The translations under genes and the position numbers were made by a program. DNA of 64,000 nucleotides from Octopus vulgaris (taxonomy: Eukaryota): positions 8,308,001 through 8,372,000 of the forward strand of contig OX597832.1 of the NCBI GenBank assembly GCA_951406725.2. The letters are read 5' to 3'. Shown in pieces: positions 3,367-64,000 of the stretch (position 1 is the first letter of the stretch; every line of letters begins with the position of its first letter). The notes beneath the pieces were generated by a model. That model was not told the DNA's origin. It worked only from the letters and a program-made list of their open reading frames with translations, and made no database searches.

Positions 3367-4997
3367 CGATTGAGACAGCAGTGCATACCATCAATGTGAC
3401 ACTGGGGTAAAATATAGGAAACCCAATATACCCACCCATCAATTAAGGGTACACCAGGCACGTATATCACAACCATATGTGTGCGACATGGTGATCTCAT
3501 ATCAAGAAATATTTGGTGAAATGGGGCGAGTGATGGGATTGCGCTGGAGAGAACGGAGGACACGTAGGATCATTTGAAGAAGGGGTAGGGTGGAAGGGTG
3601 GAAAAAGAGGGGAAAGGGTTGTGGTTAAGGTATTGGTGTGGGGAAGGTGAGACGATTCAGCACATCCGTATACCGTATATATATATATGTATGTATGTGT
3701 AAAAAAATAAAACTGGGACAAGAACGCAAAACATTTAGAAGACGATATAAAAAACACGGACGGGACATTCAAAGCCTTCAATCTTCAGTCAAGAACCGGA
3801 TCATCCTCGCAATTTCGGCTGATTAATCTTGAGATCGCTCCGATCCGGCCAGCCCCAAGGAAAAACTAAGCTACGAGCATTAGATTCCTTGGTAAAAGGA
3901 TCGAATGTATACGAAACAGGGACAGAAAAACGGGCGATATATGAGATAAATTAAGATAATATGGGGTGTCTATGTACTTTTGATATTTCTATATACTATA
4001 TACACACAAATCGCGATGGTGATAGAATTGATTAGGATGTTATATAAGGCAAAACCATGTGTTGCATCTTAGATGCTCATTATCCTCATTCAAATTTTAG
4101 TTCTGCTATATAACACACCGTTAGATGTTTCCAATTTCAAGAGCCCTCAGGTTTCTAATAATCCATACGGAATGTTCAAGTAAGAATTTCACACCGTCCA
4201 GATGAAAATTAATAAATGCACTCGGCCACAGATATAGAAGCACAGTCACAATCCCATACACCCAAACACTTTCTGTAATCATGTGGACGCAGGTGTGTTT
4301 CAGGTTAAAACTATTGTTCCATAAACATCTCGTTATAGGATCGATCTCACTGTTTGGTAACTTCGACGAGTGTCAATTATAATAGATTTTTCTCAGCTCA
4401 AAACAGATGAGTGTAATCGGGTGGAGGTTTCAGATGTGGAGATGCCCAAATAATATTTTCTATAATTTACTGTATAAGAGTCTATGATCTAAGCCATCGT
4501 ATGTGGCAACATTGATATCCAACACACTCATGAAACAGAATGTTCATATAGAAATAAATTTGCAGTCGCTGTCGGGATGCTCAAGCATGGTCGGAGCAAA
4601 TGTTCGTGCGTGTGTTTGTATGTGTCTGTGTATGTGTGTGTCTATGTATGTGTGTATGTATTTATAGGTATATATATATACTTTAGACTGCAAGAAATCA
4701 AAAAAACCCTAATTGACAGACATTACCCAGCTCAACTCATATAGGATGGGATCAGACGTGCAACAGAAATCGACATAGAAACTTTGAGAAAAGTTCAACA
4801 CAACAACACACCTTCCCCGAAAATACTACCTTACATATCCACATACAACCCCAGAAATAAAGAAGCCTTCACCATCATCACCCAGGATTTACCAATACTT
4901 CATAAGGACCCCAAATTAAAGGAAATTCTAAACACACAAAATCATTAAAAGCTACAAACAACCTAAATCACTTAAAAAGATTCTCACAAAGGCAAAA

Positions 4998-5477
4998 TTG
5001 TTTTCTGAAATTACGGATGCAAAAGTAAAAAAATGTGGTAGACCGAAATGTGTAACATGTCCAAACCTGCTAGAAGGATCAGAATTCCTTTTCAAAGAGG
5101 GACAGAAATTCAAGATCAAATCTAATTTTACTTGTGCCTCTGAAAACATAATTTATGTCATAAAATGCTCGGGCTGCCACCAAAACTACGTGGGGTCCAC
5201 GGGACTATCACTCAGACGTAGATGCACACTGCATCGACAACAGATTGCATTCCCAGAATACAGAATGATACCCTTTAGTGAGCACATTGAGAAATGCGCA
5301 AAGCAACTACTACCACAATTGTTAATCTTTCCATTTTACCAATGTGCTATCGGAACACCAACACAAATTAGACTAAACAAGGAAATATTCTTCATTGAAA
5401 AATATAAGCCCAAACTGAACCACTCCAACATTCTTATACGGAGAAACTCACCCCTCCAAAAAGGCAAGAAATATTAA
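4998..5477 (+). CDS. PLE Zn-finger/GIY-YIG endonuclease fragment
   Basis: KCGRPKCVTC, FTCASENIIYVIKCSGCHQNYVGST, LRRR, KEIFFIEKYKPKLN. Confidence 0.85.
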   Translation: MFSEITDAKVKKCGRPKCVTCPNLLEGSEFLFKEGQKFKIKSNFTCASENIIYVIKCSGCHQNYVGSTGLSLRRRCTLHRQQIAFPEYRMIPFSEHIEKCAKQLLPQLLIFPFYQCAIGTPTQIRLNKEIFFIEKYKPKLNHSNILIRRNSPLQKGKKY

Positions 5478-18960: not shown

Positions 18961-18987
18961 AGTTCATTCTACGTGACTGCATGGTAG

Positions 18988-20268
18988 TCAATACGCATAT
19001 GTGCTGCTGTGTCTTTGTTCACTTCTGGAGTACTTTTTGGAGTAACTGTTGGCCAGGAGTACCGGTTGGCCGGAATTGTGTGTTGGCGTGTTTTGAACTG
19101 TCTTCCTTCTTTCTTTTTCTATTCTTTGTCTTTCTGCTTTTCATTGTCTTTCTTTGAACTGCCATTTGACTTTGTTTAGACTTATGTTGTTTATTTCTGA
19201 ACTTTTCTTCAAAGCATGGCGAAGAAATTGAACCCTGCATTGGAGTGGAAAATCATCCTACCCAAGCAATGGTTGAAAAACTTGGAGGAAAGAACGGTGG
19301 TGTTGAGGACTTATTCTAAGTCACTCGACACCATCGCGGTCTTTACTAAGACAAAGATAGAAAAAGTGTTGGCAGAACATCTGCCAACGGTGTGGTTGCT
19401 GTTTGACACCCCTGAGGTGGCTCGCAAATTTGAGAGCCAGCCCTTAGATGGGCAAGAGATTCTGTTTCTTCTCACATATTGTGGGAAGAAATTAACAAGA
19501 GCTTGGGTCTGTGGGCTGCCACCGGGCATTGAACCGGAATGGTTTGGGGATACTATCCGCCGCTGTCTGGGTGGCAGCGGGCCCAAGGTTTTAAATGTGA
19601 TATTGTTGCCGGGGGCTGATTGGGTGGGGTCAAAAGCGGTTTTGACCCTATGGACACAATCAGCCGCTAAAGATCTGGAATTTCCAGATTTTTTTAAAAT
19701 AGACGGTTGCAGGTACCCAGTGATACTTGAGGGACGCATCCCTAAGTGTCACCTGCGCCTGGAATCGGGCCATATTAAGAAGAACTATCCTCAGGACCAA
19801 AGTAGGGTCCTGGAGCAGTTAATAAATGTAGCGACCCCCTCCTCGTTTGGAGGGAAAGAAGAAGGCAGTCGAGGAGGTGGAGACTTCCTCGAAAAAAGGG
19901 TAAAAAGAAGGTGGGCAGTAATGTTCAGGGTGAGGGACCCCTTTCCAAATGACCAATATAGGTTTAGTTTTAGGAGCCCCGGCTTGGGACTGCAGGATTG
20001 CCTGCGGGAGGGTAGGAAAGGTAACAGACTCAGTGCCTCAATTTCTAAGGACGATTGCGTTCATTCTTTGAATTGAGGTAAGAGGTTCAATACCACATTT
20101 TGTTTTGTTGGGCAAAAAGGGAACAATGTATTCGAAAAGCAACAATCGGCGGGTGTTGTCTGCTTCTCACACCAACCATTTTTTCCCATTCCATTATCAT
20201 TGTGTCTTTGTCCAACCCGCAGCTTCTTCATTTTTGTAAGGCTGCATAGTCAATTTTATGAAATAAAG
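18988..20268 (+). mobile_element. ORF1-only (HAL1-like) non-autonomous Tx1/L1-type element inserted in a SINE head
   Basis: About 1.3 kb with a single ORF1-like frame and no RT. It ends TTTGTAA-hairpin-AATTTTATGAAATAAAG like the LINE at 60607. Flanked by a SINE-head-like remnant (18971-18987) and the SINE remainder (20269 onward). Confidence 0.7.
19216..20076 (+). CDS. Retrotransposon ORF1-like protein with a degenerate CCHC zinc knuckle
   Basis: RRM-like segments (LTRAWVCGLPPGIEPEW; FPDFFKIDGCRYPVILEGRIPK) followed by CHLRLESGHIKKNYP, a decayed CxxCxxxGHxxxxC. Confidence 0.65.
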   Translation: MAKKLNPALEWKIILPKQWLKNLEERTVVLRTYSKSLDTIAVFTKTKIEKVLAEHLPTVWLLFDTPEVARKFESQPLDGQEILFLLTYCGKKLTRAWVCGLPPGIEPEWFGDTIRRCLGGSGPKVLNVILLPGADWVGSKAVLTLWTQSAAKDLEFPDFFKIDGCRYPVILEGRIPKCHLRLESGHIKKNYPQDQSRVLEQLINVATPSSFGGKEEGSRGGGDFLEKRVKRRWAVMFRVRDPFPNDQYRFSFRSPGLGLQDCLREGRKGNRLSASISKDDCVHSLN

Positions 20269-20406
20269 AAGCTTTCTTCCTAAACACATGGTTCCGGATT
20301 GAGTCCCATTGCGTGGCACCTTGGGCAAATGTCTTCTACTATATCGTCGGCCGACCAAAGCCTTGTGAATGCATTTAGTTGACGGAAAGTGAAAGAAGCA
20401 AGCCCG

Positions 20407-20445: not shown

Positions 20446-20726
20446 AATTCCGTCGGTTACGACGACGAGGGTCCCAGCTGATACGTGCAAGTGACTGAGG
20501 AATCCACAGACACGCGTACCCCTAATGTAGTTCTCAGGAAAATTCAGCGTGACACAGAGTGTGACGAGGCCGGCCCTTTTGAAATACAGATACTACTCAT
20601 TTTTGCCAGCTGAGTGGACTGGAACAAAGTGAAATAAAGTGTCTTGCTCAAGGACACAACGCGTCGCCGGGAATTGAACTCACGACCTTACAATCGTGAG
20701 CCGAATGCCCTAACCACTAAGTCACG
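20445..20726 (-). mobile_element. tRNA-derived SINE
   Basis: Minus strand has A box TGACTTAGTGGTTAG and B box GAGTTCAATTCCC. Homologous to 53444-53730. Confidence 0.8.
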
Positions 20727-31690: not shown

Positions 31691-31972
31691 TATTAACCCT
31701 CTTTTATAAGATGAAGCGATACATAGTTTATGATCCTTCTTAAGAACAGAAAACACTATCATACAAATCCATGCAAATTATACCCTCTTCACTTTCAAAC
31801 AAACAATATCTTGCATTACGCCAGTAAGGCAGTTCACTATCTATCAGCTGTATTCATTCTGCCTTTAAGAAAAGAACAAAGAATACAATATGGCAGTAGG
31901 TCATCATTCGCGCAAAACCGCGATGTATTGTTAGTATACTATATACACGTGTGTACATGACTATGTGTTTAT

Positions 31973-33190
31973 ATGTATGTAATATCTATATCTATATACC
32001 AACAGGTGTCCGGGGTCGCGATGGGAACTAGGATGGGCCCCAATTTCGCCAATCTCTTTCTTGGCTACATTGAGGCCCAAGTGTTCTCCCAGTTCTCTGG
32101 GCCGACCCCCGAACTATACGGTCGCTATATCGACGACTGCGTAGGTGCCACCTCCCTTTCCCGGGAACTTCTCGGCCAATTCATCTCTTTCCTTTCCAAC
32201 TTTCACCCCTCTCTTCAATTCACCTCCACCATCTCCAACACCTCTGTCAACTTCCTTGACATCTCTCTCCGCATCGATCACCCCTCCAGCTCTCTCACCA
32301 CCACCGCCTTCTTTAAACCTACGGATTCCCACCTCTATCTCAACTTCTCTTCCTCCCACCCCTTCCACACCAAACGAGCCATCCCCTACTCCCAGTTCCT
32401 CCGCCTCCGACGTTTGTGCAGCCGCGACCAGGATTTCGAGACCCAATCTCAATACCTGGCCCGCATGTTCAGACTCCGAGGTTACCCACCCACACTCCTC
32501 TCTGATGCCCTCACCCGCGCCCGTCGCATCGACCGCACTACCGCCTTGTCTCCTTCCTCCCGCCCACCCCCCAACCGCACCCCCTTCCCCCTCCTTTTCC
32601 ACCCCTCTACCCTACCCCTTCGTCGCAAGATACTACGTGCCTTCCGTCGCCTCCAGCTTGATCCCACCACCCGCCCCATTTTCCCTAACCCACCCCTGTC
32701 CTCTTTCAAACGAGCCCGCAATCTGCGTGACCTCCTGGTCCACAGCACCCTCTCTCCTTCCCCCTCAGCCCCACACGGATCATTCCCTTGCTCTAGATCC
32801 CGCTGCAACACTTGCCCCTTCATCACCAACACCACCGCTGTCACCGGCTCCAACCTGCATACTGTACGCATTAGGCACTCTTTTACGTGCACCTCGTCTG
32901 GCCTTATTTACTGCATTAAATGCAACCTATGCGGGATGCTGTATGTAGGTCAGACGGGACGCCGGTTGTCCGACCGTTTCACTGAACACTTGAGGGACGT
33001 TCGCCTACACTCTTTTTCTCCCGTCGCACGCCACTTCCGCTCGGCCGGCCATTCCCGAGATGACATCTCAGTGTTTGGTCTCGCCCCCCACAATGGTCGC
33101 CCACTTTCCAGGCTCCACTTGGAGCAACGCTACATCTTCACCCTACAAACTACCACCCCACACGGACTTAACACAGCCCCCTCCTCTTGA
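31973..33190 (+). CDS. PLE reverse transcriptase (C-terminal part) + Zn finger + GIY-YIG endonuclease
   Basis: GVAMGTRMGPNFANLF, RYIDD, VNFLDI, KPTDSH, AIPYSQFLRLRRLCS, PCSRSRCNTC, LIYCIKC...YVGQTGRRL..RFTEH, TTPHGLN. Homology starts about 31996; the Met comes from flanking sequence. Confidence 0.92.
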   Translation: MYVISISIYQQVSGVAMGTRMGPNFANLFLGYIEAQVFSQFSGPTPELYGRYIDDCVGATSLSRELLGQFISFLSNFHPSLQFTSTISNTSVNFLDISLRIDHPSSSLTTTAFFKPTDSHLYLNFSSSHPFHTKRAIPYSQFLRLRRLCSRDQDFETQSQYLARMFRLRGYPPTLLSDALTRARRIDRTTALSPSSRPPPNRTPFPLLFHPSTLPLRRKILRAFRRLQLDPTTRPIFPNPPLSSFKRARNLRDLLVHSTLSPSPSAPHGSFPCSRSRCNTCPFITNTTAVTGSNLHTVRIRHSFTCTSSGLIYCIKCNLCGMLYVGQTGRRLSDRFTEHLRDVRLHSFSPVARHFRSAGHSRDDISVFGLAPHNGRPLSRLHLEQRYIFTLQTTTPHGLNTAPSS

Positions 33191-36252: not shown

Positions 36253-36255
<3 letters not shown>

Positions 36256-36429
36256 CGCAGGAGTGGCTGTGTGGTAAGTGGCTTGCTTACCAAACATATG
36301 GTTCCGGGTTCAGTCACTTGGGCAAGTGTCTTCTGATATAGCCTTGGGCCGACAAAAGCCTTGTGAGTGGATTTGGTAGACGGAAACATCATCATCACCA
36401 TGATCATCATCTTCTTCTTCTCCTTCTTC

Positions 36430-42147: not shown

Positions 42148-44500
42148 TATATTAATTGTTTGTCGTAGACCCGTTAAGAAGTGGCTTGTATTTTGTAATA
42201 AAGAGATTTTCTTTACTTATTCTTTGTCTCGAGGTTGTATCGTCCCTAAATTGGTAGAGGGGAAAATTCTGAAGTTTGGTGTTTTTTTGTTGGCGCAAGT
42301 ATCTATGTGTTGGCTAAAAGCTATTTTTCTGTTTTGGGGAATTTTTATCTGGGATCTGTGCAGGGCCATTCGTTTACGCAAACCATTTTTTGTTTGGCCT
42401 ATGTACTGCTCTTGACACCCGGAGCAGGTTAGTGAGTATATTAGGTTCTCCGAAGCACATGTGAAGTTGCTTTTCACTGTAAACCGTTGTCCCTGTTTGA
42501 AGGAGAACTCCGAACCCTCGATTAGATAGTCGCATATCCCGCAATTGGGTCTTCCACATTTTTTTACTGTCGGCTTCTGTGTTGAAGAGTGAATTCGGGC
42601 TTGTGTAAGGAGACTTTTCATGGATCTAGGCTGTCTTTTGCTTTTTATGATCGTGTGTGTTTTTGGAGGATTGTGTTCATTCTGTGGTCTTTTTTTAGGA
42701 GGGGTATGTTGTGGAGGATGGTGTCGAAGGCTTCGTTATTGAGAGGGTTGTGTGTGGAGATGTATGGTAAGGCTTTTGGTTGTAAGTTTTTCTTTGATTT
42801 GGGATGTCTCAGTTCCTTGATGTTAAGTTGAAGGGCACGTTGAATGCACTTGTCAATAAGTGAAGGTGGATAGTTCCTGGTGATTAGGGTATCTTTTAGT
42901 TCTTGTAGTCGTGTGTCTCTGGTGTTTGCGTTAGAGACTATAGTGCATATCCTTTTTGCTAGATTGAAGGGGATATTCATCCTGGTGTGTCTGGGGTGGC
43001 ATGAATTGAATGGAAGATATTGCTTAGAGTCTGTAGGCTTATAGTATATGTCTGTTTCTATTATATCATTAGCTTTCTTAATGAGGATATCGAGGAAGGG
43101 GAGTTGTTGTTGGCTATATTCCATCGTGAATTGGATGTTTACGTCCAGTCCGTTTAAAATTTTCTGGAATTCTATGAGTTTTTCTATATTTTTATGCCAA
43201 AGGATGAAACAGTCATCTAGATATCTCTTCCAGTTGTTTTCTATGTAGATGGAGAAAGGGCTGCCATATCTTTCTAGAACCTTACGATACAGACTGATCT
43301 CTAGGTATCCTATGACTAGGTTGGCAAAGGAGGGGGCCATTCGTGTACCCATCGCAGTCCCCGATTTTTGTCGGTAGAAGTTGTCATTGAAGGCGAAGAA
43401 GTTATTTTCCAGGATGAATTTAACCCCTTCTATCACAAATTCTTTTTTGATGCGGTGTGGTAGTTCGTTGGCGTGATTCTCTAGCCAGAATTGGATTGCC
43501 TCTAGTCCTAGGTTGTGGGGGATATTGGAGTAGAGGTTGACTACATCGAAGGATACCAGTATGGTGTTTTTGTTTATAGTATTCGGTAGGTGATTGAGCA
43601 TATCTAAGTCGTCCCTTATATAGCTTTTGACATGTTTGAGGAGTGGTTTTAACAGGGTGTCTAAAAAGTTACTGAGGCGGTGGGTTTCGCATGCGGGACC
43701 TGCTATTATGGGTCTCAATTTGAGGTCATTAGGATTAGGGACTTTAATTATTTTGTCTGTAGCTATCTTGCATGCTTTGCTTATTTTTTCACTTTTGTGG
43801 ATCTTAGGTATACCGTAGAATTGGCTAGTTTTACTTGTGAAATTGGTCATATAATCATATTCTTTGTCGGTGAGCCCTGCTTTGTATGGGTTTAATATGG
43901 ATTTTAGTTCCCTCATTATTTTTTGTTGACTGTAGTTTTGTGCCTTTTCATAGTATGTTGTGTCTTCCAGCATAGAAAGTACCAAAGTTATGTAAAATGT
44001 CGTATCCATTAAGACAACAGCACTCCCTTTATCGGCCTCTTTGATTGTTATTGTTTTATCTAGTTTTAATTTGTTCAACTCAGCCCATTCTTTTTTTGCT
44101 GAAGTTTGGTTTGTGTTTTTGTTTGTGCATATGTTGATATGGGTAATTTGATATGTGGTCACAGAAATCATCAAGTGTTTTATTCTTACCTTTCGAGGGG
44201 GTGTAGTTACTCCTATTTCTGGCTAACGATTCGTCCTCGTTGTATTTATCGTATAGCTCCTCAGTAAGTCTTAATTTTCTGCAGAATTCTGCGATGTCTT
44301 CTTTCATTTCATTGTAGTTGGGGTGTTGTGGGGTGGGTGTAAACTTGAGTCCTTTGGAAAGTATGTTTATTTGGTTTGCTGTTAGTTCCTTGTGAGTTAG
44401 ATTAATAATTTTTATTACTTTTGGTTCCTCCTGCTTGTTTGGTGCTATCTTGTGTCTCTGTGTTTGCGTATTGGGTCTAAAAAATGAATGCGGTGGTTGG
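42148..44500 (-). CDS. PLE RT + Zn finger + GIY-YIG (split by 1-bp homopolymer indels)
   Basis: KEADKGSAVV, FYGIPKIHK, LRPIIAG, SFDVVNLYSNIPH, GTAMGTRMAPSFANL, RYLDD, LPFLDI, CGRPNCGIC, NLIYSLTC...YIGQT. Confidence 0.9.
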
Positions 44501-45360
44501 GACGGTAGCTAGTATATAGTTGTTCTTTGTTGATTAGGGGTCTCCTGTTGTGATTTGTGGTGTGTGTTCTTGGAGCAGTATTGAGGAGAGCATCCCGATA
44601 TCCCATATTCGGGTGTGGTGTTCTAGGAGGCCTTCGTAGGTAATCATTGCAAGTGGTGTGGGTTTGTTGTGCATGGTTGTTTAACCGGTTAATGGGACGA
44701 AGATTTCGTTGGTAACTCCTTTGGGTGGGGATGAGGTTGCAGTGTCTATGCTGTGGGTGTTGATTTATCCTTTCTCTGCTTGAAGTGGGGTATTCCTGAT
44801 ATTGTATCGCTGGCTGCTTACAGAGTTGGGGTTAGGTCCTGTATTCTTTTTTGATAGTAGTGAAGGTTCCGATTTTTAGACGGGTGTGTATCGGTGTTTG
44901 GGTGTTGTTTTGGTTTTCTTATTTTCTGGAAAGGGTTGTTGGAGGCGTGCTCTGTTTGAAAGACGGCTTCATAGTCTGAGAACCAAGTGGCGCTTTTCTC
45001 CCAGCGTTGGAGAGATTTTAGTTCTTCTTTTTCACAGTCCTCTTTCCATAGTTTGGAGAACTTCTCTTGATCTGGGCCTTGGGTCATTTTGCGAATTTCT
45101 TCGTTGATATCTTCATCGGTGGATTTTATTTTATCCTCATTCGTTTGGGCCCTCAATTTCAGAAGTTCTATTTCCATTTTCATTTTTCCAGTGCCATTCT
45201 CTCCCTGAGGTGTCTTTGTGTTTCAGGTTCTTCTGTAATAGCTTTGAACTGGAATTTACGTGGGAGGATTAACGGGGTCCGGTTGAGCCATTTTTCGTAT
45301 ATATCCGCTTTGTTGTTGTTTTGGATCATCTTCCAAAAGGCGAACTTTCTATCTCTGAGT

Positions 45361-46270
45361 GATAGAAAGTTCGCCTTTTGGAAGATGATCCAAAACAACA
45401 ACAAAGCGGATATATACGAAAAATGGCTCAACCGGACCCCGTTAATCCTCCCACGTAAATTCCAGTTCAAAGCTATTACAGAAGAACCTGAAACACAAAG
45501 ACACCTCAGGGAGAGAATGGCACTGGAAAAAATGAAAATGGAAATAGAACTTCTGAAATTGAGGGCCCAAACGAATGAGGATAAAATAAAATCCACCGAT
45601 GAAGATATCAACGAAGAAATTCGCAAAATGACCCAAGGCCCAGATCAAGAGAAGTTCTCCAAACTATGGAAAGAGGACTGTGAAAAAGAAGAACTAAAAT
45701 CTCTCCAACGCTGGGAGAAAAGCGCCACTTGGTTCTCAGACTATGAAGCCGTCTTTCAAACAGAGCACGCCTCCAACAACCCTTTCCAGAAAATAAGAAA
45801 ACCAAAACAACACCCAAACACCGATACACACCCGTCTAAAAATCGGAACCTTCACTACTATCAAAAAGAATACAGGACCTAACCCCAACTCTGTAAGCAG
45901 CCAGCGATACAATATCAGGAATACCCCCACTTCAAGCAGAGAAAGGATAAATCAACACCCACAGCATAGACACTGCAACCTCATCCCCACCCAAAGGAGT
46001 TACCAACGAAATCTTCGTCCCATTAACCGGTTAAACAACCATGCACAACAAACCCACACCACTTGCAATGATTACCTACGAAGGCCTCCTAGAACACCAC
46101 ACCCGAATATGGGATATCGGGATGCTCTCCTCAATACTGCTCCAAGAACACACACCACAAATCACAACAGGAGACCCCTAATCAACAAAGAACAACTATA
46201 TACTAGCTACCGTCCCAACCACCGCATTCATTTTTTAGACCCAATACGCAAACACAGAGACACAAGATAG
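45361..46270 (+). CDS. 5'-truncated PLE ORF1 (charged, coiled-coil-like, then low-complexity basic)
   Basis: DRKFAFWKMIQNNNKADIYEKWL...LRERMALEKMKMEIELLKLRAQ... With one A-run indel near 45865 it continues to ...GYRDALL...RIHFLDPIRKHRDTR*. Confidence 0.65.
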
Positions 46271-48558
46271 CACCAAACAAGCAGGAGGAACCAAAAGTAA
46301 TAAAAATTATTAATCTAACTCACAAGGAACTAACAGCAAACCAAATAAACATACTTTCCAAAGGACTCAAGTTTACACCCACCCCACAACACCCCAACTA
46401 CAATGAAATGAAAGAAGACATCGCAGAATTCTGCAGAAAATTAAGACTTACTGAGGAGCTATACGATAAATACAACGAGGACGAATCGTTAGCCAGAAAT
46501 AGGAGTAACTACACCCCCTCGAAAGGTAAGAATAAAACACTTGATGATTTCTGTGACCACATATCAAATTACCCATATCAACATATGCACAAACAAAAAC
46601 ACAAACCAAACTTCAGCAAAAAAGAATGGGCTGAGTTGAACAAATTAAAACTAGATAAAACAATAACAATCAAAGAGGCCGATAAAGGGAGTGCTGTTGT
46701 CTTAATGGATACGACATTTTACATAACTTTGGTACTTTCTATGCTGGAAGACACAACATACTATGAAAAGGCACAAAACTACAGTCAACAAAAAATAATG
46801 AGGGAACTAAAATCCATATTAAACCCATACAAAGCAGGGCTCACCGACAAAGAATATGATTATATGACCAATTTCACAAGTAAAACTAGCCAATTCTACG
46901 GTATACCTAAGATCCACAAAAGTGAAAAAATAAGCAAAGCATGCAAGATAGCTACAGACAAAATAATTAAAGTCCCTAATCCTAATGACCTCAAATTGAG
47001 ACCCATAATAGCAGGTCCCGCATGCGAAACCCACCGCCTCAGTAACTTTTTAGACACCCTGTTAAAACCACTCCTCAAACATGTCAAAAGCTATATAAGG
47101 GACGACTTAGATATGCTCAATCACCTACCGAATACTATAAACAAAAACACCATACTGGTATCCTTCGATGTAGTCAACCTCTACTCCAATATCCCCCACA
47201 ACCTAGGACTAGAGGCAATCCAATTCTGGCTAGAGAATCACGCCAACGAACTACCACACCGCATCAAAAAAGAATTTGTGATAGAAGGGGTTAAATTCAT
47301 CCTGGAAAATAACTTCTTCGCCTTCAATGACAACTTCTACCGACAAAAATCGGGGACTGCGATGGGTACACGAATGGCCCCTCCTTTGCCAACCTAGTCA
47401 TAGGATACCTAGAGATCAGTCTGTATCGTAAGGTTCTAGAAAGATATGGCAGCCCTTTCTCCATCTACATAGAAAACAACTGGAAGAGATATCTAGATGA
47501 CTGTTTCATCCTTTGGCATAAAAATATAGAAAAACTCATAGAATTCCAGAAAATTTTAAACGGACTGGACGTAAACATCCAATTCACGATGGAATATAGC
47601 CAACAACAACTCCCCTTCCTCGATATCCTCATTAAGAAAGCTAATGATATAATAGAAACAGACATATACTATAAGCCTACAGACTCTAAGCAATATCTTC
47701 CATTCAATTCATGCCACCCCAGACACACCAGGATGAATATCCCCTTCAATCTAGCAAAAAGGATATGCACTATAGTCTCTAACGCAAACACCAGAGACAC
47801 ACGACTACAAGAACTAAAAGATACCCTAATCACCAGGAACTATCCACCTTCACTTATTGACAAGTGCATTCAACGTGCCCTTCAACTTAACATCAAGGAA
47901 CTGAGACATCCCAAATCAAAGAAAAACTTACAACCAAAAGCCTTACCATACATCTCCACACACAACCCTCTCAATAACGAAGCCTTCGACACCATCCTCC
48001 ACAACATACCCCTCCTAAAAAAAGACCACAGAATGAACACAATCCTCCAAACACACACGATCATAAAAAGCAAAAGACAGCCTAGATCCATGAAAAGTCT
48101 CCTTACACAAGCCCGAATTCACTCTTCAACACAGAAGCCGACAGTAAAAAAATGTGGAAGACCCAATTGCGGGATATGCGACTATCTAATCGAGGGTTCG
48201 GAGTTCTCCTTCAAACAGGGACAACGGTTTACAGTGAAAAGCAACTTCACATGTGCTTCGGAGAACCTAATATACTCACTAACCTGCTCCGGGTGTCAAG
48301 AGCAGTACATAGGCCAAACAAAAATGGTTTGCGTAAACGAATGGCCCTGCACAGATCCCAGATAAAAATTCCCCAAAACAGAAAAATAGCTTTTAGCCAA
48401 CACATAGATACTTGCGCCAACAAAAAAACACCAAACTTCAGAATTTTCCCCTCTACCAATTTAGGGACGATACAACCTCGAGACAAAGAATAAGTAAAGA
48501 AAATCTCTTTATTACAAAATACAAGCCACTTCTTAACGGGTCTACGACAAACAATTAA
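46207..48558 (+). CDS. PLE RT + Zn finger + GIY-YIG (split by 1-bp homopolymer indels)
   Basis: KIINLTHKEL...LSKGLKFTPTP N-terminus, RT motifs as in the left arm, and a C-terminus restorable to ...KENLFITKYKPLLN, matching the 4998-5477 homologue. Confidence 0.9.
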
Positions 48559-60016: not shown

Positions 60017-60021
<5 letters not shown>

Positions 60022-60183
60022 AGTCGTGGATGTGTGGTAAGAAGCTTGCTTTCCAGTCAAGTGTCTCCTGGCTCAGTCCCATTGCGTGGCACCTTGGGCG
60101 ACTGACTCTTACTATAGCTTCTGGGCAACCAAATCCTCGTGAGTGGACTTAGTGGGCGTAAACTGAAAGAAGCCAGTCGCGTA
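60017..60183 (+). mobile_element. OK-like SINE head
   Basis: gcgcagtcgtggatgtgtggtaagaagcttgct...gcgtggcaccttggg; an uninterrupted target site. Confidence 0.8.
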
Positions 60184-60186
60184 TAT

Positions 60187-60386
60187 ACTCTTTACTCTTT
60201 TACCTGTTTCAGTCATTTGACTGCGGCCATGCTGGAGCACCGCCTTTAGTCGAGCAAATCGACCCCGGGACTTATTCTTTGTAAGCTCAGTACTTATTCT
60301 ATCGGTCTCTTTTGCCGAACCGCTAAGTGACGGGGACGTAAACACACCAGCATCGGTTGTCAAGCAATGCTAGGGGGACAAACACA

Positions 60387-60466
<80 letters not shown>

Positions 60467-60606
60467 TACGACAGGCTTCTTTCAATTTCCGTCTACCAAA
60501 TCCACTCACAAGGCATTGGTCGGCCCGGGGCTATAGCAGAAGACACTTGCCCACGATGCCACGCAGTGGGACTGAACCCGGAACCATGTGGTTGGCTAGC
60601 AAGCTA
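60187..60606 (-). mobile_element. OK-like SINE, complete except for the first ~25 nt displaced by the Tx1-like LINE
   Basis: Minus strand starts tagcttgctagccaaccacatggttccgggttcagtccc and runs through the internal microsatellite to the gtaaaagagtaaaagag tail. Confidence 0.88.
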
Positions 60607-63600
60607 CTTTATTTCATATAATTTGCCATTTAGGCATTTACAAAGAGGGGACAAACAAGGACAGACAAATATAAAGGGTGAAGTAGCTTAACACAGTTAC
60701 AATTTTCGAATGAAATTATGGATAAGATTATAAACAATGAATTTTACGAAGGCAATGTTTAAAAATATTAATGATCATGTCGAAGGACGGACACCCAGCC
60801 ATCCGGGTAGAACCTTTACTTTCTGATCCGATCACACTTACCTGGTGCCAAACATACCCATCTTGTATGCCACAGGCTTCCATCTTTTCACAAACATATC
60901 TCGTGACAGACACCTCTTCTCCAGCCTGATTTTGCTACTGAGGTGGTAACTAAAAAAGTTAATCAACCCCTGGCCGGAGACAAAGGTGCCTGTCACTATA
61001 CCTTTCGTACGCGTCTTCCATACTGTTTCTTTCAGTATGGCTACTACACAGAAAAAACAAGCCTTTCTTTCCCTGTTAAGGAAAGGGGCGGCACAATCTC
61101 GATGATAGACTCAGCTGATAGCTGTACTCTTCCCATCACTGACAACAGTTGTTCAACAAAAGCTATCAGTCCCGATAACTCCGGACACTCCACGAATGCG
61201 TGCAAGACGGTCTCCCTATCCTGCTCACATCGCGGGCATGTCGGCGAGACGGCACTACCGTGCCTTGACAGCTTGTCGCGAACAGGTAAAGCCGCACGGA
61301 AACACTGCCAGGCTAGGGATTTCTGGTAATTATCCAGATACCCCGGCCCGAACGTCCTCCGGAACAGGTTGACCAACTGATTTTCATCGTAGCCCAGGGT
61401 CTCCCCCAAGGCGTCTTCGGACTTAATCTCCACTAACCTGCTATAGAAATCCGTGGTGGAACTCCTGTTGCCGGCGTTGCCCACCCGAGATAGTAGCTGG
61501 AGTGCCTGACGGCAGTCCAAATAACATTCACTCAGTTTAGGTCTCCGCTTGATCCATGCACCGATGTCCGTTAGGGATGTTAACTGGGGAAGGTAGAACC
61601 GGACGTGCGGCGACCACACCTGCTCTCCATCCAGGTAAAGCCAGAGGTGCCTCAACCTTAACGCGAATTTTCGCATCCTCAGCCAAGGCATCCCTAGCCT
61701 ACCCTTTAGCGGTTTCTGGCAGCAGACAGAGCGCTTTACAAGTGGCTTTCCTCCTTTCCACAAAAATCGGAAAAGGATTCTCTCCAACTTGTTCAGCCAC
61801 AAATCGGGGCAAGGCACCACGGTCAGACGGTAGGTGATTACTGATGCTATAAACATCTGCACCACCTCCGCCTTCCCTAGCAGGGATAACGCCCGCCCAG
61901 ACCAGGTCTGGGTTAGAGCGGTCACCTTGTTGGCCACCTCACTCCAATTTTTCTCAATCTGGAGGTCTGGCCCGAACCAGACTCCGAGCAGCTTAACAGG
62001 ACCTTCCATCCAACGCCCTACGACGTTATTGGACGGCTTCGGCTTGCCCCTCCAGGTGCCGAGTTGCAAACCGACCGACTTGTCCTTGTTAACCTTTGCT
62101 CCTGCCACCGCCTCGTAACTTTTGATGGCCTCTTCCACCACTGGAAGCTGGCCTTCGTCTGCCACGATGATGGAGGTGTCATCCGCATACGCCGTAGCTC
62201 CTCTTCCACACCATAGATCATGCGGCGCGCCCCCTAGTACCTCCAACTTCCGCAGCAAAGGCTCAAGAGCCAATACGTATAGGAGCGAGGACAGGGGACA
62301 CCCTTGACGAACTGAACGCTCGATCCTGAACGGCTTCGAAAAGGAACCGTTCACCTTGACTACAGACTCGATGTCGCTATACAAAGCAGCGATCCAACCT
62401 CGAAAGGTCGGGCCTAGGCCAGCCTCTCCGAGGACCGCCGCCAGGTACCGATGGTCGACCCTATCAAATGCTTTGGACTGGTCTAAATGTACCAGTGCTC
62501 CCCCTGCGCCAGAAAGCTTCCCCACCCTCTCTAAGGAGTAGCGTATAAGGTGGAGATTGTCGTGGATCGTTCTGCCGGGGATAGCGCACATTTGCGCTTC
62601 CCCGACAAGTTTGTCCACGACCCGCGCCAACCTTTTTGCTAGCACCTTGGCCAGAATCTTTAACTCTGTGTTTAACAGAGTTATGGGCCTGAAGTTCCCT
62701 ATCTCGTCCCCCTTGTTCGGGTCCTTCCTGATCAACGTCACCGCCCCCCGGCTCGCAGACTTGGGAATTCTCCCATTCTGCTGCCAGTTGGCGTAGACGC
62801 TAGCCAGCAGGTGCCCGAACAAGTCTGGCATACTTCTATAAAATTCATAGGGCAGACCATCGAGACCCGGCGACTTCTCCCCGGGGCACTTGCCCAACAC
62901 CTCGATTACTTCCTCGGCTGTGAATGGCCCTTCACAGCACTCAGCCTCTCGTGTCGAGAGGCGCGGGCCACCAGACAGGAAGTCCCTAAGGGCCTCACCA
63001 TGATCCAGCGTCCCGCACCCCCGAACAACTCGGCGAAGTGCTTGTGAAGTGCCTCACACATCTCGTCCCGCTTCTTGATCGTGCATCCGTTTTCATCAAC
63101 AAGAGACCCAATTGTGGCATCGTTTCCACGCTGTGTTTCTATCGTACGGGCCCATCCGGCAACATTAATCCCCTCACGGCCCAATGCTCGTACTTTAGCC
63201 CGGACTCTACATCCCTCATGTTTGGTTTTGAGGTGACGGTCTAATGCCGTTCTCGCCGCTAAAATGTGAGATGCAGAGCCCAACCTCAACGCCTCCTCTA
63301 AGTTCTTAACTTGTTGCCCTTCTATTCTAGCCCTATCTAGTCTTAGTTGTTTACTAAATCTAATGGACTCGAATCGAATGGCTCTTTTGAGGGTGAACCA
63401 CCACCGGTTATTAACCACGGCTCCGGTTAACGCCCTCTGCACTAACACCTTAATCCGGCTACGGTATGCCTCGCGTGTCAAAATAGACTTGTTCAGCTTC
63501 CAGTAGCCGGTTTCTATCTTAAGTGTGCTATCTATGTCCAGTCTACACGTGACCATTCTATGGTCAGTATAGGGCACCTGGACGAGCTGTGGACAACTAA

Positions 63601-64000
63601 AACTAGACTTATCTCTAGTTCTTATCACTATCCTGTCTAGATAAGACTTGAACCTTCCGTCGCCACTCATCCAGGTCCACTCTGGGACGTTCGGATGGTC
63701 AAGTCTGTAACGATCTGCTAGCTGAAACCGCTTAAGCAGATCTACGAGACGTGAGTTCACTTTCCTATAGATCGAGCCAACGCTATCGATGTGTACGTCA
63801 ACGATAGCATTAAAGTCCCCTAATATCACTAAAGTCTTCGACGTCACGAGAAAGCCCTCTAGGCGCCGATAAAAATCAGTTTGGAAACCTCTAGCACAAG
63901 GTGCATAGAGTCCGATCAACCTGAAGGCCTTACTGCTGTATGTCACATCAAGGACGACCAGCCCACCTTCTGGGTCTACATAGACTGTACTTGTCTGTAG
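60607..64000 (-). mobile_element. Tx1/L1-clade non-LTR retrotransposon (continues beyond the window)
   Basis: APE + RT + C-terminal zinc finger. The 3' UTR ends with ATGAAATAAAG at 60607. Confidence 0.93.
60838..64000 (-). CDS. Tx1-like ORF2: apurinic endonuclease, reverse transcriptase, zf-RVT (two 1-bp frameshifts near 63020 and 61060)
   Basis: GDFN, SYLDRI, TDH, GYWKLN, KSPGLDGLP, FRPITLLN, DQSKAFDRV, RQGCPLS, YADD, CPRCEQDRETVLHAFVEC. Confidence 0.92.

Follow-up and report, generated by a model that had tools for sequence, protein, structure and literature searches.

A young LINE of Octopus vulgaris and its ORF1-only partner families insert at one position in the head of a tRNA-derived SINE

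A young family of L1/Tx1-group LINEs in the Octopus vulgaris genome, together with families of elements that encode ORF1 alone, is nearly always inserted at a single position in the head of a tRNA-derived SINE, and we are highly confident that this placement reflects recognition of the target sequence by the LINE endonuclease followed by priming of reverse transcription at the nick. The insertions share one position and one orientation, arose independently of one another, are associated with a 14-nt target-site duplication, lack poly(A) at the 3' junction and, when full-length, begin with a target-like 5' leader of the element's own.

The LINE was detected in the window (the whole analyzed stretch of 64,000 nucleotides), where its 3' part occupies positions 60608..64000 of the minus strand. 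The whole element spans 5.45 kb, and the best genome copies are ~98-99% identical. Its 5' end lies in the adjoining genome stretch, at G000:C19:8374046, ~2 kb past the window edge, and the order there is SINE head (up to 8374079), 15-nt target copy (GTAGCTTTGCTAACC) and 5' UTR of the element, so that the SINE head and the short duplication, of 14-15 nt, that an earlier note on this DNA had anticipated beyond the window are both present. ORF2 (60844..64000, minus strand), with APE endonuclease, RT and zf-RVT regions, starts ~235 bases past the window edge and is broken in the window copy by frameshifts near 63019 and 61088; ORF1 is frameshifted as well. Among 40 fetched copies, two (L106 and L122) retain intact ORF2 frames of 1140 aa and a third has a frame of 1133 aa.

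The domain architecture is that of the L1 group: ORF1 with a zinc knuckle (Pfam zf-CCHC) and ORF2 with an N-terminal APE endonuclease (Exo_endo_phos), an RT (RVT_1) and a C-terminal zinc finger (zf-RVT). As in that group, both 5' truncation and target-site duplication occur. Among PDB proteins, where L1 and R2 are the sole clades represented, the RT is closer to human L1 ORF2 (E=1e-67) than to R2 (E=2e-20), and the endonuclease aligns with that of L1 (E=6e-12), retaining the GDFN and DH motifs. The nearest named relatives of ORF2, all unannotated, come from Argonauta hians (64%) and Acanthosepion pharaonis (51%), with further unannotated relatives at 39-40% in lancelet, sea cucumber and limpet; the two closest agree with the octopus origin assumed in the earlier note. 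We use the label "L1/Tx1 group" rather than Tx1 clade because named Tx1 proteins were absent among the protein-search matches; the target preference described below (91 of 94 flanks) lies above the >20% of flanks that the excerpts of PMC4494074 give for target preference in that clade. Several LINE copies (L014, L019, L054, L093 and L115) carry internal deletions and keep both ends, possibly as young non-autonomous derivatives. Among the sequencing runs listed, the stretch is present in 20 of 24 entries, from 10 studies, none listed as RNA; contigs from 4 runs (4 organism codes) span all 30 bins of the LINE, and in run X2 a contig extends over the 5' junction.

In the window, the LINE end …ATGAAATAAA (last base 60608, minus strand) runs straight into the SINE GTAGCTTGCTAGCCAACCACATGGTTCC (60607 onward), which confirms the fusion reported in the earlier note, at 60608/60607, as a direct join without poly(A). 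Genome searches were run with the element sequence alone and hence were blind to the flank. They returned 107 exact 27-nt LINE 3' ends, 96 of which are followed by GWAGYTT, far beyond chance and in support of the fixed SINE target proposed in that note; 10 of the 11 exceptions, all inspected, are mutated SINE sites or tandem junctions. The set inspected junction by junction comprises 94 distinct copies of the 107. The SINE site forms the 3' flank in 91 of the 94 (~97%), the same position each time, so the mostly unrelated flanks that the note had set against its own proposal did not materialize. Of the 91 on-site copies, 82 lead into the SINE body; in 7 the target motif comes next and then the 5' end of another element; and 2 (L097 and L102) are SINE insertions that were later rearranged, with the head kept on the 5' side in both. 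The three copies outside SINEs lie in a target-like tandem repeat with a 14-nt duplication (L120), in a (GTAG)n run (L099) and in unrelated sequence (L096). The base after the LINE end is G in 93 of 94 copies, C in one and A in none, and no added A residues were seen at any of the 94 inspected junctions. Since the LINE end and the target share TAA/AA, followed by this nearly invariant G, the exact join is ambiguous by 1-4 bases. Young LINE and partner families alike are inserted in the SINE's own orientation. Older subfamilies, sampled as 40 copies hand-picked from the lower part of the protein search (77-91% aa identity), occupy the SINE site in 37 cases, 34 recognized by script and 3 by eye (one with a short deletion), and the remaining 3 have no 3' end.

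The 5' side tells the same story of a pre-existing target. The best 30 full-length 5' ends are preceded by the SINE head in 28 cases, 2 of them with small deletions, and the other 2 follow the 3' end of another element; the upstream SINE remnant on which the earlier note had made its proposal depend is therefore regularly found. Among 16 5'-truncated copies, 7 have a clear head at differing breakpoints, 1 is ambiguous, 3 are off-target and 5, which lie in SINE bodies, have no head at the breakpoint. Across 82 copies, the LINE ends are a median 98% identical and the SINE bodies a median 91%, and in the 932 pairs with LINE ends at least 99% identical, the SINE bodies still show 91%. The divergence of SINE bodies beside nearly uniform LINE ends indicates that the SINE is a target that was there beforehand rather than a part of the LINE, and the heads carried by truncated copies with differing breakpoints, together with flanking SINEs older than the LINE, imply independent insertions. 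In the truncated copies L092 and L125 and the off-target copy L120, 14 nt of the local target are duplicated, implying a staggered cut. The 5' junction was compared with the target in 43 pairs, 4 of them tandem (the 3' flank being another element). In full-length copies within non-CTAACC targets, it differs from the target in 13 of 13 cases and ends in TAACC in 12, often with an extra T; in CTAACC targets it is identical to the target in 18 of 30 (Fisher p=1.6e-4 for the contrast). This departure from non-CTAACC targets shows that the element carries a target-like 5' leader of its own.

The 3' part of the SINE interrupted by the LINE occupies 60469..60607 (minus strand), is 97% identical to an intact SINE copy and continues from the body into (TA)n; its first 14 nt, at 60594..60607 (minus strand), are the 3' copy of the target-site duplication identified by junction comparison (GTAGCTTGCTAGCC here). 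A B-box-like motif follows at 60578-60568, and the insertion site falls between the A-box-like and B-box-like motifs, so the two boxes are separated as the earlier note held. Sequence comparison identifies two empty sites on the plus strand of the window, namely an uninterrupted SINE copy at 36253..36387 and a more diverged one of the AAGAAGC type at 60018..60179; the sequence formerly ascribed to uninterrupted copies needs correction, given that 36253 and 60017 read TAAGTGGC and TAAGAAGC, not TAAGTAGC. The SINE head, with its A and B boxes, is tRNA-related: it aligns along the full length of host tRNA genes (best z ~5.5 against shuffles) and is folded by ARAGORN, at a lowered threshold only, into a degenerate cloverleaf, while an Rfam search of the head gave no tRNA match (microsatellite hits and two chance hits). 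We presume that the SINE resembles octopus OR2 / CORE-SINE. OR2 is listed as an octopus CORE SINE in the excerpts of PMC4758252. A partnership in which the SINE would be mobilized by this LINE was rejected, as the SINE tail bears no resemblance, by eye, to the LINE 3' end. Other short repeats, apparently of further SINE families, lie beside the SINE at 60184-60400 and 20460-20720 of the window, and for one of these neighbors, too, the end lies near GTGAAATAAAG (20629), but it has nothing to do with the LINE junction. At the locus L233, two SINE copies in inverted orientation stand directly behind an older LINE insertion.

The same site is used by elements that encode ORF1 only. The earlier note had taken a second element in the window, at 18988-20268, for an independent copy of the LINE; the shared terminal bases and SINE position stand, but the element belongs to another family and is a decayed, HAL1-like ORF1-only partner (18988..20267, plus strand). 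Its ORF, at 19201-20076, is 61% identical at the amino acid level to the ORF1 of a young partner and 25% to that of the LINE, no ORF2 similarity was detected in it, and it ends in the same 9-10 bases as the LINE, with the SINE joined at the same position (3' part of the SINE at 20268..20399, plus strand, 83% match). The head-like remnant noted on its 5' side (18973..18986, plus strand) is plausible, with 11 of 14 bases matching, but weak, because 193 of 20000 shuffles match equally well and there is no duplication. Among 30 filled junctions taken in genome order, many belong to elements without ORF2. Ten partners fetched whole are 1.2-2.25 kb long (nine of them 1.9-2.25 kb), are flanked by SINE head and body, and in 6 of 10 have 13-15 identical bases on both sides. 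The partner ORF1, of ~416 aa, is homologous to that of the LINE (E=5e-23) at 29% identity, a distance indicating that the partners are old rather than recent deletion products. ORF1 stands alone in these families: tblastn of ORF2 at E<=1 found no remnant in the 10 partner loci or the window element. For one young partner family (~2 kb), 195 exact 39-nt ends were counted, which puts it at no fewer than 195 copies, and all of the first 30 examined are at the SINE site. All families share a terminal TGAAATAAA, which was part of the search pattern that retrieved the partner loci, and a predicted 4-bp hairpin, which was outside that pattern. In the window LINE, the former (60608..60616, minus strand) ends in an AATAAA signal with no poly(A) at the junction, and the latter (TGCC-N5-GGCA) is at 60624..60636 (minus strand). 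With 91.7% of cells paired and 2 pairs changed on both sides (in 1 sequence each), the predicted hairpin is likely an RNA recognition signal. The shared 3' end, site and junction variants imply, as judged from sequence comparison, that the LINE probably mobilizes the partners in trans.

Exact counts of a 34-nt pattern give 53,641 empty sites and 415 filled junctions, an occupancy of ~0.77% (exact patterns only). With fewer than 1% of its sites occupied, the SINE family is not suppressed by the insertions, and we reject such an effect; the "disabling" of the SINE put forward earlier can hold for the individual copies hit (~0.8% of sites), with a negligible effect on the family. For the LINE, the SINE may act as a "safe haven", as the earlier note supposed. 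The SINE-head 13-mer occurs 145,275 times in the genome and the core 9-mer 183,082 times, compared with 19,619 for the reversed control of the 9-mer, and the SINE is the source of 79-89% of the genome's AAGTAGCTT 9-mers. Owing to this supply, much of the apparent SINE targeting would follow from recognition of a short motif. The off-SINE share, 3 of 94, is nonetheless below what the 9-mer alone predicts (P=0.007 against 11%), a modest excess for the SINE, and recognition is likely somewhat longer than the 9-mer or helped by pairing. That two of the three off-SINE copies, L099 and L120, sit in target-like sequence points to sequence recognition.

The targets have a history of their own. Young copies lie in CTAACC (50) and CTTACC (30) subtypes and older copies in 6 and 26, respectively (p=5e-5). 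Greater homogeneity (94.5% vs 88.2%) makes CTAACC probably the younger of the two types. On the simple reading, the shift mirrors target availability at the time of insertion; on a bolder one, the leader tracks the subtypes. Filled sites are hit again at ~5-10x the expectation: the count is 7 among 94 flanks on the 3' side and, by hand, 5 among 56 on the 5' side, compared with ~0.8-1.5% expected (P<0.002). Mixed arrays of LINE and ORF1-only elements, separated by the target motif alone, are seen at L203, L204, L205, L213, L216, L221 and L235, and such LINE-partner arrays need separate events or template jumps. Another array (L207-L209, at G000:C9:2664553-2680900) consists of three full-length LINEs, head to tail in one SINE; all three show an identical 15-nt junction variant, and the array may have arisen by duplication. 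For related loci in other species, a profile scan for flanks matched 77 stretches and confirmed 0.

The mechanism we propose would run as follows. Judging from the junctions, the endonuclease would nick the bottom strand near TAA^GTAGC and the top strand ~14 nt downstream, and the nick would prime reverse transcription. ORF2 would recognize the 3' hairpin and terminal bases common to all families and thereby also mobilize the ORF1-only partners in trans. Joining of the 5' end may then come about through annealing between the leader, as copied into cDNA, and the 14-nt overhang. Less certain is a step at the 3' end, in which the RNA may read through AATAAA into the duplication and pair by its own 3' end with the primer strand; pairing of this kind would explain the tail-less, base-precise 3' junction. 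Polyadenylation cleavage falls 10-30 nt downstream of AATAAA, and because this signal stands at the very end of the element, target sequence would be left on the RNA. According to the excerpts of PMC7265360, reverse transcription by R1Bm is accurate only if target sequence from downstream is present, and as cited in PMC1919474, the Tx1L endonuclease alone confers target specificity.

Several other explanations deserve consideration. The SINE body could form part of the LINE's 3' end, or the partner LINE of the SINE could have amplified a SINE-LINE-SINE composite as one piece, as might be suggested by the majority of copies that are full-length with both SINE halves and by a weak positive correlation of LINE and SINE identity (rho 0.10). 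Such a unit is refuted by the heads of truncated copies with differing breakpoints and by the age mismatch between SINE bodies and LINE ends; the differing SINE subtypes around the same LINE family, the unrelated ORF1-only families at the same site and the tandem copies separated by the duplication alone also speak against it, and we give it hardly any credence. Alternatively, RNA polymerase III factors bound at the SINE promoter might tether the integration machinery, much as TRE5-A is directed to the vicinity of tRNA genes, in place of guidance by the DNA sequence. A site between the A-box-like and B-box-like motifs would suit tethering, and the excess of re-hits could reflect chromatin state, yet the position is base-precise within the SINE, whereas tethered elements land at a distance from their target and not at a fixed internal base (PMC3706591, in excerpt), and L099 and L120 landed in look-alike sequence with no SINE; we consider tethering improbable.

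Recognition of the target sequence by the endonuclease is thus our preferred reading, and what remains to be weighed is how the preference came about. The SINE could be an accidental sink for an enzyme whose preference evolved on another target, such as a tRNA gene or an older repeat, a view that is compatible with the preferred reading on mechanism and differs from it on history. The SINE dominates the genomic supply of the 9-mer; relatives of the LINE exist in cuttlefish (51% RT identity), and SINEs are, according to the excerpts of PMC8967140, scarce in decapodiforms, so that the LINE lineage may predate the SINE. Conversely, 33 sampled tRNA loci, of 7 isotypes only, contain no exact target core (the best has 2 mismatches, at another position), and the 5' leader of the element matches the youngest SINE subtype. 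On balance, the accidental origin is a tentative possibility that we take seriously. The opposite history, a LINE specialized on the SINE and tracking its evolution, with an RNA bracketed by SINE sequence, a target set by pairing and endonuclease together, a leader renewed with new subfamilies and an old ORF1-only guild that now outnumbers the LINE, is speculative and, in our view, rather doubtful.

The insertion habit itself has precedents. Tx1-clade elements are known from within other transposons, including Tx1 in Tx1D, Tx1-Mar in Mariner-N4_AMi and others in LTR and Harbinger elements. Like Tx1L of Xenopus laevis, in the piggyBac-type Tx1D, and the crocodilian Tx1-Mar, the octopus family is an L1-group APE LINE with a fixed site in a transposon, forms tandem copies around the duplication and shares its target with non-autonomous partners (for Tx1-Mar, the SINEU passengers). 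The octopus family differs from them in that it hits the head of a tRNA-derived SINE instead of a DNA transposon or an LTR element, that its partners encode ORF1, and that ~97% of copies use one site, compared with two regions in Mariner-N4_AMi and a threshold of 20% for calling a family target-specific (all according to the excerpts of PMC4494074). Keno (U2), Mutsu (5S), Dewa (tRNA-Leu spacer) and Kibi and Koshi (microsatellites) are likewise sequence-specific LINEs in multicopy targets (PMC4494074, PMC3706591, in excerpt); their targets are conserved host genes, spacers and simple repeats, whereas the SINE hit in octopus is itself mobile and diverging, and its subtypes differ in age. Being ~2 kb long, coding for ORF1 alone and having the 3' end in common with an autonomous LINE, the partners resemble HAL1 (half-L1), HeT-A and Ag-Sponge, whose sources in the excerpts of PMC5786205 and PMC5753468 are L1, Jockey and CR1, none from Tx1. 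Dada elements also occupy fixed sites in tRNA-type sequence, with target-like flanks that sometimes travel along; in contrast, they are DNA transposons that insert into real tRNA genes and generate duplications of 6-7 bp, and the word SINE is absent from the main texts of both papers (PMC3706591, PMC8869645, in excerpt). A repeat annotation of Octopus vulgaris lists 13 recently active L1-Tx1 families, and the word "target" is absent from its main text and one supplement (PMC13282606). We found no report of a LINE targeting a SINE among the papers listed by our full-text searches, and an earlier entry may exist in Repbase, Dfam or the subscription literature.

Other elements surround these insertions. 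The frames at 31961-33190, 42645-44222, 46207-48365 and 4932-5477 of the window resemble, by eye, Penelope-type RT with a GIY-YIG endonuclease, which we presume them to encode; overlapping near-identical copies lie within 42217-48365. The opposite-strand frames 45052-45882 and 45180-45644 have long peptides in common, a sign that an inverted repeat of >150 bases may adjoin the Penelope-like copies. A frame with helix-turn-helix-like peptides 1 kb upstream of a LINE copy (L031:7031-7558) is presumably a mariner-transposase-like fragment.

Insertion at specific sites is a known habit, and the SINE is a new target for it with good support. To the conserved host genes and DNA transposons used by site-specific LINEs, the >150 inspected insertions add a dispersed SINE. 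The family is young, keeps intact ORF2 frames in some copies, and provides many junctions as well as natural variants of the target, which makes it a ready system for the study of endonuclease specificity and 5' joining. Nests of the SINE-LINE-SINE type will be mis-built in annotation as composite consensus sequences, and for work on cephalopods, a LINE that inserts with base precision and has >100,000 dispersable sites could be put to use as an integration tool.
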